Below are positions 48,976 through 51,207 of a stretch of 64,000 nt of DNA, in pieces. How positions within the stretch are numbered: the first letter of the stretch is position 1; every line of letters begins with the position of its first letter. The notes beneath the pieces were generated by a model. The model was not told the origin of the DNA and made no database searches. It was given only the letters and a program-made list of their open reading frames with translations. The DNA is from Escherichia coli (GTDB lineage Bacteria > Pseudomonadota > Gammaproteobacteria > Enterobacterales > Enterobacteriaceae). A program made the position numbers and the translations under genes. Location of the stretch: assembly GCF_046105845.1 (NCBI RefSeq), contig NZ_CP151004.1; one strand, written 5' to 3'.

Positions 48976-49202
48976 GTTTTACGTAAAAACCCGCTTCGGC
49001 GGGGTTTTGCTTTTGGAGGAGCGGAAAGATGAATGACTGTCCACGACGCTATACCCAAAAGAAAGCGGCTTATCGGTCAGTTTCACCTGGTTTAACGAAA
49101 ACCCGCCAGCGTAAACTGGCGGGTTTTTGCTTTTTGGAGCATAGTGTAAGATGAATAAATATCTGCGGTATTAATAATAGACTTTGTAAGAAGTTATTAA
49201 GT

Positions 49203-50390
49203 CTATATTGCATTTAAAAGGTCGTAATCATACGTATAGTCCTCTCTGGTATAATATTGCTTCTCTGAGTTATAAGCTTCATATGTATTATATTTTACGA
49301 CTTCAAAGCAATTGTCTGGAGAATTTTTGTCTTTCTCGAGTATATTATCTGGAAGGAATTCCTCTGAGCTAGAGTCCTCTATGTTTAAATCTGTATTGTA
49401 ATTAATTTTTGGATCGATTAGATAAGCATTTCCTTTGACGCTTTCATAATCTTTAATGATTATATCGATGTAATAATCTATTTTTTCTGATGAGAATGCT
49501 TTCATCTCTGGTAATCTAATTCTGTTCAAGTAATTGTTAATTTTCGATGAGCTTTTATATATTTCTTTTGTTAATTCATTTTCTAATTCATCTGTTAGAG
49601 TTGCTCTTGGTATAGATTCTATAATTGCAAGTCTCATAATTTTTAATTGTTCTTCGGTAATATCTCCAAGCGCATTTAAACAACTTTCGACAAGCTTAAT
49701 TTTTTCTTCAGAATACATATCGTTAATGCTTGTTATAACAGGCGTTATTTTTAGTAAATAATCCCATGAGATTGTGGCGTTTTGTTTTGAACTAACGAAA
49801 TTTACCTGAAACATGTTGGCATTAGTAAAATCTGTGTCATCCAATTTAAAAGGGTTTAAAATTGTATTGGCCATATGTTTATCTGTAAAATCATAAAGTT
49901 CTAAATCGATATTCCGTAAGTCCAGAGAGGATAGATCAACTATACCTCCAGTCCCACAACTAAAGATTACGTTCAACCTCCTGATTTCATTGTAAATGTC
50001 TTTCAATGGGCAATTAACATTGATATTGCCTGTGGATATTTCCTGGTTTTTTAACGGTTCATTAATTGTAAGTTCACAGGTATTGTCTGATCGTTGAATA
50101 ATTCGGGCGTTATAACCAAAAAAATCCATACGAAGAGACGAATCATTATAAAGAATTACATTTTGTAAGTACGCTAATTCTTTTTGGAAATCACCAGTGA
50201 TAATGCATTTTCCGCCTGGTTGTAACGCGTTAAGTAAAGTGACCATTTCAATAGAGGTCTGTTTTAGTTTTTCTATGCCTGGTGCTAGTGCTTCGAGGTT
50301 ATTTCCTATGGGGCTTTCAGGAAGGTCATTCATTTTTCGACGGGCTAAATCACTACTAATATCATTACCAATTGATGAAACAGGGGACAT
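49203..50390 (-). CDS. yhaC: Uncharacterised protein YhaC (Asn/Ile/Asp-rich, low-GC)
   Basis: 395-aa ORF in a strongly AT-rich segment; position and sequence match K-12 yhaC; loosely repetitive region around DLRNIDLELYDFTDKHMANTILNPFKLDDTDFTNANMF. Confidence 0.85.
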   Translation of the reverse strand: MSPVSSIGNDISSDLARRKMNDLPESPIGNNLEALAPGIEKLKQTSIEMVTLLNALQPGGKCIITGDFQKELAYLQNVILYNDSSLRMDFFGYNARIIQRSDNTCELTINEPLKNQEISTGNINVNCPLKDIYNEIRRLNVIFSCGTGGIVDLSSLDLRNIDLELYDFTDKHMANTILNPFKLDDTDFTNANMFQVNFVSSKQNATISWDYLLKITPVITSINDMYSEEKIKLVESCLNALGDITEEQLKIMRLAIIESIPRATLTDELENELTKEIYKSSSKINNYLNRIRLPEMKAFSSEKIDYYIDIIIKDYESVKGNAYLIDPKINYNTDLNIEDSSSEEFLPDNILEKDKNSPDNCFEVVKYNTYEAYNSEKQYYTREDYTYDYDLLNAI

Positions 50391-50487
50391 TATTTTATCC
50401 TTTATAAATAATCAATAAAAATCATTATTAAAATGATCGGGTGAAAAAAAGAGAATTTGCCAACAATCTGTAGGAATGGAGGTTTTA

Positions 50488-50982
50488 TTAAAGTACGTAG
50501 GGGGGGGTTAAGATTGCTTCTTTTCGGGTGAATTTTGCACAATACTTAGAAATCGTCTCCTTAATACACTCCAGCTCTTTTTTATTGACGGCTGAGCAAG
50601 TACATTGTTCGCCAAAAGGTGCAAAAGTGCCTACATCTAATGTTTGTATGATATAATCGTCATGTTCTCCTGTAGAAATATCTATGATGAATGGACTCAT
50701 ATTTTCCGGTTGGATTCGGATCATGACAGAAGGAACATCGCCTTGATAGAAATTCAATGCAGTAATTGCAGATAATACTCTCCGCAGTTCATTACTTATA
50801 CTGTATATTTTATTAACGTCATTGGTGGAGACAATTTCTGCAAACTTTCTTTTTACCGTCCAATAATCAATATTTCTATTGTGATTGTTAACCACTGCGT
50901 GCATTGGCGGGATTGAAGGGTGAAAAATATGTGCAATTGGGAAGCCTTTCATTGATGCCTGCCTTGTCATCATGACAAACAA
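50488..50982 (-). CDS. yhaB: Uncharacterised protein YhaB
   Basis: 164-aa ORF in AT-rich DNA between yhaC and tdcR; start codon uncertain. Confidence 0.75.
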   Translation of the reverse strand: MFVMMTRQASMKGFPIAHIFHPSIPPMHAVVNNHNRNIDYWTVKRKFAEIVSTNDVNKIYSISNELRRVLSAITALNFYQGDVPSVMIRIQPENMSPFIIDISTGEHDDYIIQTLDVGTFAPFGEQCTCSAVNKKELECIKETISKYCAKFTRKEAILTPPYVL

Positions 50983-51207
50983 TAATAGATGCTTATTTTC
51001 CTCGCAGGGTTCTTTCGCACTATCAAAAAACGCTCATTTACCCGGCGTTACAGTAAACGAAGCAACATTCTGTGGCCTACGCCGATCAAAAGCTCTGTGA
51101 AAATTTCCCTTGTTGTCTTTGTCTGACCTTATCGCGGCGACCAGCAATTATTCGTTTTGTGATCCTCAACACAAAATGCTATTCGTCGCCTATGAGGGGA
51201 GAGGAAT

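Follow-up and report, generated by a model that had tools for sequence, protein, structure and literature searches.

The closest described counterpart of the locus analysed here is the yhaB-yhaC pair of Escherichia coli K-12 (b3120 and b3121), two annotated genes whose foreign composition and H-NS binding have been published (PMC3661553). K-12 yhaC contains a 706-bp internal "promoter island" and another lies between tdcA and tdcR (PMC3661553 Table 1); both were called foreign by the GIST, Nakamura and Lawrence methods, and H-NS binding in K-12 chromatin immunoprecipitation (ChIP)-chip data was recorded in three of three studies for the yhaC island and in two for the tdcA/tdcR island (PMC3661553). 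Phylostratigraphy lists the pair as a young operon in which both genes have the same age (PMC12218254), and none of the papers listed by our literature search for b3120 and b3121 deals with what either gene does. We analysed the orthologous locus of another E. coli strain in a 64-kb stretch of contig NZ_CP151004.1 (the window, all 64,000 nucleotides of it), in which the segment garP-garL-garR-garK-rnpB-yhaC-yhaB-tdcR-tdcABC is inverted relative to MG1655. The two genes appear to occupy about 2 kb of foreign-type, AT-rich DNA that would be confined to E. coli and Shigella and that lies between the terminator-repeat array of rnpB and the tdcR-tdcA control region; the block probably forms a single minus-strand operon, yhaB then yhaC, with soluble products of cytoplasmic type. 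We put the probability that its identity, limits, lineage restriction, coding status and dispensability are jointly as described below at roughly 75%.

The gene order rnpB, yhaC, yhaB, tdcR, tdcA is common to K-12 and the window, with nucleotide identities of 91.8% for yhaC and 98% for yhaB. The window yhaC nevertheless belongs to another haplotype class (8% diverged), the repeat array behind rnpB has about 1.3 units where the K-12 array is 386 bp longer, and yhaB is frameshifted. The strain is not K-12: its yhaC allele is nearest to that of PCN033 (99.1%), and over its full 3.4 kb the locus reaches at most 98.6% identity to any of 5,426 complete genomes. Like the H-NS-silenced xenogeneic DNA and promoter islands of K-12, the block is AT-rich and lineage-restricted and has an excess of promoter-like sites, but this excess is modest (18 sites where 11.9 ± 3.4 are expected, with many lying antisense to yhaC) and the H-NS motif is not enriched. 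Like genomic islands at stable-RNA genes, it is DNA of foreign composition distal to a stable-RNA gene with a duplicated 3' end, and a tyrosine-integrase element uses the rnpB end in other strains; unlike them, it has neither an integrase nor a direct repeat on its far side, and the duplications predate it. The ten five-residue units of YhaC with L, F or M at the centre align to the solved solenoid repeats of pentapeptide-repeat proteins (PF00805, PF13599; Np275/Np276, PDB 2J8K), but they would make only about 2.5 turns, are set between unrelated unique domains, and score below threshold in Pfam. Our additions to the published record are modest and comprise the block limits, the deletion scars of the sequence type 131 (ST131) kind, the predicted pentapeptide segment, the yhaB frameshift of the window, the depth of the haplotypes, and a live attachment (att) site at rnpB.

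The features of the locus, in window coordinates, are as follows.

48,599-48,975, plus strand: rnpB, the RNase P RNA gene and left anchor of the locus (Rfam RF00010, 318.6 bits, model positions 1-367)
48,926-49,156, plus strand: rnpB 3' repeat and terminator array (repeat families D1, D2, D5 and D9; terminator scan)
49,157-51,145, no strand: putative E. coli-specific block, 1,989 bp, 34.2% G+C (blastn of the garK-tdcA spacer against relatives)
49,203-50,390, minus strand: yhaC, an intact open reading frame (ORF) of 395 amino acids for a soluble acidic orphan protein (ORF list; NCBIfam NF007262)
49,791-49,940, minus strand: predicted pentapeptide-repeat segment of YhaC, residues 151-200 (ten 5-residue units in a row)
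50,488-50,952, minus strand: yhaB, cut to 154 amino acids from 179 (alignment with K-12 YhaB)
50,500-50,507, minus strand: C8 homopolymer, cause of the yhaB frameshift (DNA alignment and exact position)
51,155-51,175, minus strand: CRP-type site upstream of yhaB, unchanged from the one in K-12 (exact match, PMC12871828)
51,208-51,426, minus strand: tdcR, 72 amino acids, AT-rich, outside the insertion (NCBIfam NF008507, 174 bits)

The start of tdcA follows at 51,741 on the plus strand, and apart from yhaC and yhaB the block contains only short spurious ORFs in the ORF list.

An AT-rich block absent from related species

The interval 49,141-51,060, singled out as AT-rich and compositionally foreign by the first-pass annotation of this DNA, has 33.4% G+C and is the lowest 1,920-bp stretch in the window (1,242 windows, mean 49.8%, standard deviation 5.2, z ~ -3.2); in a 500-bp profile, G+C falls from 0.60 at rnpB to 0.29-0.37 over the yhaC-yhaB region. 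Among the 54 non-overlapping ORFs of at least 150 amino acids in the window, yhaC has the lowest G+C at third codon positions (GC3; 0.28, z = -3.0), and its choice of synonymous codons is the most atypical (z = -2.9); yhaB is an outlier in codon use and GC3 (z ~ -2.3 to -2.5), and so is tdcR. The frequency of TpA is 0.090 in the block and 0.048 in the whole window. The annotation had named a sliding-window G+C profile and a codon-usage comparison as its own checks, and the region is an outlier by both; composition or codon use like that of the flanks, or homology to a housekeeping enzyme, would have spoken against it, and neither was found. The AT-rich tract runs past 51,060 through tdcR to the start of tdcA (51,146-51,740, 32.3% G+C) and is composite, because the DNA on the tdcR side predates the block: the part with tdcR and the tdc promoter is the older one, common to other Escherichia.

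We fetched the same locus from other taxa through homologues of GarK: Salmonella enterica (L010), Citrobacter (L011), another relative (L008), E. whittamii (L015), and further Escherichia (L013 and L014). All six have garK, rnpB, (tdcR), and tdcA-tdcB-tdcC, and the stretch from garK to tdcA measures just 1.1-1.5 kb; tblastn detects neither YhaB nor YhaC in any of these spacers. Blastn homology of L013 and L015 to the window stops at 49,156 and restarts at 51,146, and we therefore place the limits of what appears to be an E. coli-specific block at ~49,157-51,145, nearly coincident with the interval drawn in the first-pass annotation. The longest match of L014 ends at 49,084, and homology to Salmonella and Citrobacter restarts only at 51,215. 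About 120 bp of L013 sequence are replaced by the block, so that this is not a clean insertion, and its right edge is fuzzy by about 50 bp, between ~51,100 and 51,145. The claim that the pair was acquired and is not part of the core is supported by the empty site in E. whittamii, in another Escherichia genome, and in both Salmonella and Citrobacter. Two features expected of a genomic island are thus present, namely lineage-restricted presence with an empty site in all six comparison loci and atypical base composition and codon use (34.2% G+C against ~50% in the flanks; GC3 of yhaC 0.28, z ~ -3). For the neighbouring tdcR, nucleotide identity is 85% to L013 and L015 and drops to 66-69% for Salmonella and Citrobacter, where the gene is weakly recognisable; it is a fast-evolving small AT-rich gene, older than the yhaBC block and separate from it. 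Relative to K-12, tdcR has three non-synonymous and zero synonymous changes.

Both proteins are orphans. A phmmer search of 1.84 billion representative proteins with YhaC returned nothing but whole or fragmentary sequences of E. coli type, the allele P0034 (62-63% identity), and a marginal match to one pentapeptide-repeat protein (P0143, E = 8.5e-4), and a word-indexed search of 5.8 billion clusters returned solely E. coli and Shigella entries for YhaB and YhaC. A scan of 100,044 species genomes (one per species), which rests on two peptide patterns and which very distant relatives could escape, hit two short contigs, 87-93% identical, in Collinsella and Bacteroides bins of metagenome-assembled genomes that we read as mis-binned E. 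coli DNA. With tblastn, a phage collection holds no relatives of YhaB or YhaC, and a plasmid collection holds no true plasmid relative, the hits being chromosome-sized records and one 354-kb E. coli record. PHROGs gives no meaningful match to either protein; in PADLOC-DB 2.0, YhaC has no match, YhaB and TdcR match at chance level (E = 0.013 and 0.028), and no model of an anti-phage defence protein is matched. Pfam, NCBIfam and the PDB assign no enzyme family to either product, as expected for what had been described as uncharacterised proteins without a recognisable enzyme motif. The gene names given there also hold: YhaC matches the NCBIfam equivalog NF007262 from end to end (854.7 bits against a cut-off of 765, E = 8.1e-258, residues 1-395 on profile positions 1-395), and YhaB homologues carry PF27690.

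Selection, loss and haplotypes

Compared with K-12, yhaC has a synonymous divergence (dS) of 0.21 and a non-synonymous divergence (dN) of 0.059 (ratio omega 0.285), where the flanking genes have dS 0.05-0.14 and dN 0-0.008. Against a rare and far more distant haplotype found in E. coli (the deep haplotype), the values are dS 0.57-0.64, dN 0.20-0.22 and omega 0.31-0.38 for yhaC (93 synonymous and 176 non-synonymous changes against the deep allele at omega 0.38), and dS 0.52 and omega 0.24 for yhaB; the acidic C-terminal third of YhaC is the least constrained part (omega 0.5-0.75). Omega is well below 1, and yhaB and yhaC are therefore real protein-coding genes; the data show that they encode functional proteins under purifying but weak constraint, about 5 to 40 times weaker than that on the neighbouring genes.

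Frequent loss and frameshifts, H-NS silencing in K-12 and the lack of detectable homologues could also be read as signs that the two ORFs are non-functional AT-rich leftovers that have stayed open by chance. This is very improbable, since alleles with 38% of their residues different have kept a frame of 395 codons open despite the AT-rich DNA, the omega values of 0.24-0.38 are based on hundreds of substitutions, and both the pentapeptide register and the C-terminal motif of YhaC (see below) are conserved across alleles. Annotation in a spread sample of complete genomes agrees, with 31 full-length copies recorded as YhaC family protein and one 86% match as hypothetical protein.

The pair is dispensable: roughly one E. 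coli genome in five has deleted it, and the window carries a frameshifted yhaB. Among the 5,426 complete genomes, at least 80% of yhaC is kept in 4,314 and only about 9% in 1,087, so that ~20% of the 5,401 matching genomes (1,087) retain only scraps of the gene. The ST131 locus (L001) has internal deletions corresponding to window positions 49,247-50,058 and 50,122-50,849, so that only remnants of yhaC and the initial 102 bp of yhaB survive, and its tdcR has an internal stop (a pseudogene); absence of this type is secondary loss and not primary. In strain YZ22PE67 (L007), yhaC has an internal stop. The annotation's description of an old, domesticated acquisition therefore stands as to acquisition, and "domesticated" is overstated for genes that are lost in ~20% of genomes and bound by H-NS in K-12. 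The pair can serve as a worked example of orphan genes with limits known to within ~50 bp that are under selection and yet lost in the pathogenic ST131.

Full-length yhaC alleles fall into a window-type class (at least 95% identity, ~1,170 genomes), a K-12-type class (~91-94%, most other full-length copies), and a deep class (60-80%, 19 genomes). Divergence from K-12 climbs to 5-12% only at ~48,900-50,600. Relative to the deep haplotype, divergence jumps from 0.5% to 24-31% just past the 3' end of rnpB, stays at 15-30% up to ~51,300, and is back to 1.5-3% at tdcA. The deep haplotype spans L002:2,577-5,050 and L016:5,440-7,170 (window ~48,980-51,700) and encodes a YhaC 62-63% identical to that of the window; both loci are from genuine E. 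coli with flanks 97-99% identical to the window. Its dS from the other alleles is as large as the 0.32-0.80 by which flanking genes of E. coli differ from those of E. whittamii or E. albertii. We consider two alternative origins for it, introgression out of a lineage not yet sampled and long-term balancing selection.

Such depth raises the question of whether yhaB-yhaC is an ancient Escherichia locus that was lost from the sister species and is now a balanced or introgressed polymorphism with deep alleles under diversifying selection, in the manner of surface-antigen or immunity loci. The species-level dS (0.57-0.64 for yhaC, 0.52 for yhaB) within flanks of 97-99% identity, its sharp bounds at rnpB and tdcA, an allele (P0028) that is a mosaic of two yhaC classes and hence a sign of recombination between them, and the place of yhaC in the top 14 positive-selection signals from 92 E. 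coli genomes of wastewater origin (PMC9110714) all point that way. We nonetheless consider it rather unlikely: no copy or scrap is present in the non-coli genomes examined, whereas ST131-type loss left scraps, several independent clean losses would be required, overall omega is below 1 with only the C-terminal third of YhaC nearing 0.75, and recombination between haplotypes can fake positive-selection signals and could have inflated that of yhaC.

The YhaC and YhaB proteins

YhaC (45.2 kDa, isoelectric point (pI) 4.5) is rich in Ile (10.6%), Leu (10.4%) and Asn (9.9%) and has 6.6% Lys, and neither it nor YhaB has a hydrophobic segment long enough to span a membrane. The loosely repetitive centre noted in the first-pass annotation is real and consists of ten pentapeptide units over residues 151-200 (VDLSS LDLRN IDLEL YDFTD KHMAN TILNP FKLDD TDFTN ANMFQ VNFVS). 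Each has L, F or M at its centre, a run of ten occurs in 0 of 20,000 shuffles, and the central residues are unchanged in the 62% identical YhaC allele. Both Pfam matches are below threshold (Pentapeptide_4, E = 0.056, residues 152-201; Pentapeptide, E = 3.2), nine of the 12 weak PDB profile matches are natural or designed pentapeptide solenoids aligned to residues 151-199, and hhalign pairs YhaC with the pentapeptide protein P0143 at 91.5% probability. Residues 151-200 are thus best described as a putative short pentapeptide-repeat segment with about 2.5 predicted beta-solenoid turns, and YhaC consists of a unique N-terminal region, this segment, and a helical acidic C-terminal region. DNA mimicry of the Qnr/MfpA type would require a much longer segment.

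A single-sequence PDB search with YhaC gave no match and the YhaC profile only sub-threshold ones; a FolD-like match to residues 31-142 (E = 0.0085) was dismissed as chance. AlphaFold2 yielded unusable models for YhaC (alignment of 15 sequences, mean predicted local distance difference test (pLDDT) 32.6, 28-34 over the pentapeptide segment) and for YhaB (6 sequences, mean pLDDT 34.5). At the very C-terminus, the motif YTY(D/N)YDLLN(A/E)I (residues 385-395; 49,203-49,235) is invariant across all alleles. The acidic tail before it is the fastest-evolving part of YhaC, and the motif suggests a short binding site. P0143 itself is a 230-amino-acid protein from a metagenome library whose residues ~160-230 look TIR-like by eye (…NYSSKDEEFGKRLA…VWFAAEDV…LLLVLS…); a TIR-like continuation of the alignment into YhaC was rejected, as Pfam finds no TIR domain in YhaC.

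The yhaB gene starts at 50,952, within a longest listed ORF of 50,982-50,488. Residues 1-150 of the product match K-12 YhaB at 99% identity; beyond them the frame is lost through a C8 tract (codons ~149-151) that is C7 in the nearest relatives and C6 in K-12; the extra base leads to a stop at 50,488 and a YhaB of 154 amino acids, 25 codons early. The ancestral frame would end at ~50,412, 21 nt before the start of yhaC. The C8 tract may reflect real slippage, gene decay in progress or a misread homopolymer; other database variants of yhaB are frameshifted at nearby A and T runs, and some of these may be sequencing errors. Intact YhaB has 179 amino acids (20.6 kDa, pI ~6.3-6.4) and a low-confidence predicted order of helices, three strands, a helix, two strands and a helix. 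Precomputed annotation places PF27690 (UCP004546) on all 30 YhaB homologues found; a YhaB profile search returned neither PF27690 nor any other family from the Pfam copy used, and no match from the PDB. One NCBI protein of 547 amino acids (P0018) is an in-frame YhaB-YhaC fusion through a deletion over the end of yhaB and the spacer.

PipB and PipB2 are pentapeptide-repeat effectors of Salmonella, and on that analogy YhaB and YhaC might be the chaperone and effector of a type III system such as E. coli type III secretion system 2 (ETT2). The arrangement of a small gene upstream of a larger acidic protein with a Ser-rich N-terminus, pentapeptide repeats and an invariant C-terminal motif would suit this, as would the predicted order of secondary structure in YhaB and the low G+C and H-NS silencing typical of effector loci. 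We regard the idea as highly unlikely: searches of Pfam, NCBIfam and the PDB reveal no sequence similarity of either protein to known effectors or chaperones, neither structural model can be used, and YhaB is near-neutral (pI 6.3-6.9), whereas class I chaperones are typically acidic. Moreover, K-12 is not known to have a functional type III system, yet its yhaC is intact, and comparison of K-12 with other lineages shows the gene to be under purifying selection. The intact K-12 gene also speaks against the secreted or effector-like character that the first-pass annotation saw in YhaC.

We tentatively propose, while thinking it unlikely, that YhaC is a binding or scaffold protein and not an enzyme, which would partner YhaB in an evolutionary conflict or a niche-specific interaction; such a role would explain its fast evolution, deep haplotypes and repeated loss. 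A more specific version, in which the pair is a novel E. coli-restricted two-gene conflict system (for example anti-phage or anti-competitor) with the YhaC solenoid as sensor or binding surface and with haplotypes under diversifying selection beside a hotspot of recombination and integration at rnpB, is decidedly speculative and improbable. It would be in keeping with the orphan status, the fast evolution, the species-old haplotypes, the repeated loss and the live att site adjoining, and the sole outside match, P0143, is a pentapeptide protein with a C-terminus that is TIR-like by eye. The pair is a reasonable candidate for screens of E. coli y-genes for conflict-related or niche-specific functions.

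Regulation

The operon would normally be silenced, by analogy with published K-12 data, because in K-12 H-NS covers this DNA, a promoter island lies within it, and sites for CRP and FNR are found just upstream. An in-vitro CRP site is reported for yhaB (PMC12871828), a K-12 FNR ChIP target is assigned to the gene (PMC1802558), and the RpoS and RpoH holoenzymes bind within yhaB in genomic systematic evolution of ligands by exponential enrichment (SELEX; PMC5493296). The FNR site has an exact match at 51,255-51,278, inside tdcR, and the region of the CRP motif is conserved in L013, so that this site is in DNA older than the insertion; both sites are in older DNA just upstream of the block. Any expression of yhaB-yhaC would most likely be anaerobic and catabolite-derepressed, like that of the neighbouring tdc operon.

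The rnpB 3' end and the origin of the block

The last ~50 nt of rnpB (48,926-48,976) are duplicated at 49,027-49,089, with a terminator hairpin behind each of the two copies (48,990-49,003 and 49,096-49,129). The start of a degenerate third repeat (49,148-49,163) is the point at which homology to other species ends. A 24-nt core of the rnpB end has two exact copies, at 48,953 and 49,066, against 0 expected, and both are on the rnpB side. Tandem Repeats Finder reports no array at the rnpB 3' side of the window, as this strain has just ~1.3 repeat units. Salmonella and Citrobacter carry several copies, and the array therefore predates the block. A permissive Rfam search of 48,900-51,800 found the rnpB end and sub-threshold noise and nothing else.

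Twelve of the 5,426 complete E. coli genomes and one E. albertii carry a ~7.7-kb element exactly at the rnpB 3' end (equivalent to 48,975/48,976; L007:20,001-27,754, L003 from 8,577, L012 from 7,150). It encodes a 468-amino-acid tyrosine integrase, a DUF5906 primase-helicase, a resolvase and a Zn-ribbon protein, and is bounded by the last 23 nt of rnpB and a one-mismatch copy. The junction is at ...TTTCACCT in L003 and L007, and a copy of CG(G/C)CTTATCGGTCAGTTTCACCT closes the element; next come the repeat array and yhaC. In L003, an IS26 insertion sequence (IS) truncated the element and removed yhaC through the tdc operon. The rnpB 3' end is thus a working integrase attachment site; the literature library that we searched holds no report of rnpB as an att or integration site in enterobacteria. 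The site is relevant to island-finding software that is restricted to tRNA and tmRNA genes.

As to origin, the block would have been delivered by a mobile element that used the att region at the rnpB 3' end and later lost its mobility genes. In the strict form of this idea, the block is decayed island cargo that entered site-specifically at one of the rnpB-3' att copies and whose integrase and distal att were deleted afterwards. The suggestion that rnpB was an integration target with a repeat at the boundary agrees with the left junction, which lies 9 nt into a degenerate rnpB-3' repeat unit (AAGATGAAT|) where the E. whittamii-type unit continues to an intact att core, and with the use of the rnpB 3' end by the 7.7-kb integrase and primase-helicase element in 12 E. 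coli genomes and E. albertii; the block is also lineage-specific and compositionally foreign. This strict form is plausible but doubtful, because tandem repeats occur in genera that lack the block and so are not its scars, the living element uses the rnpB-proximal rather than the distal copy, some 120 bp of ancestral sequence are replaced with no clean interruption, and neither mobility genes nor a second att-like copy accompany the block, as set out next.

Several observations weigh against our overall account of the locus. No integrase, recombinase, IS remnant or other mobility gene was found in or beside the block (ORF list, NCBIfam, PADLOC, PHROG), just as the first-pass annotation had noted, and there is no att copy or bounding direct repeat on the tdcR side (51,100-51,700). 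The rnpB repeats are older than the block, and the present-day element enters at the rnpB-proximal end of the array while the block is at the distal end. No donor is known, horizontal transfer is read from composition and phyletic pattern only, and the genes could have arisen within the lineage; the species-level dS of the deep haplotype fits awkwardly with a single recent gain. On the side of regulation, the high-affinity H-NS motif TCGATAAATT (at most 2 mismatches) is not enriched in the block (1.5 against 1.8 per kb), and the H-NS occupancy is that of the K-12 orthologue, from another strain and haplotype than the window. As for the proteins, the pentapeptide match of YhaC is below the Pfam threshold, and the AlphaFold2 models of YhaC and YhaB (pLDDT 32.6 and 34.5) are both unusable.

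A second AT-rich stretch

The window has a second AT-rich stretch at 23,791-30,100, with four minus-strand ORFs of 364, 840, 230 and 190 amino acids and GC3 of 0.30-0.37. By synteny with yraH annotated beside agaI in L007, these ORFs appear to be the yraH-K fimbrial cluster, and the agaI/yraH spacer is listed as an H-NS-bound promoter island in K-12 (PMC3661553).

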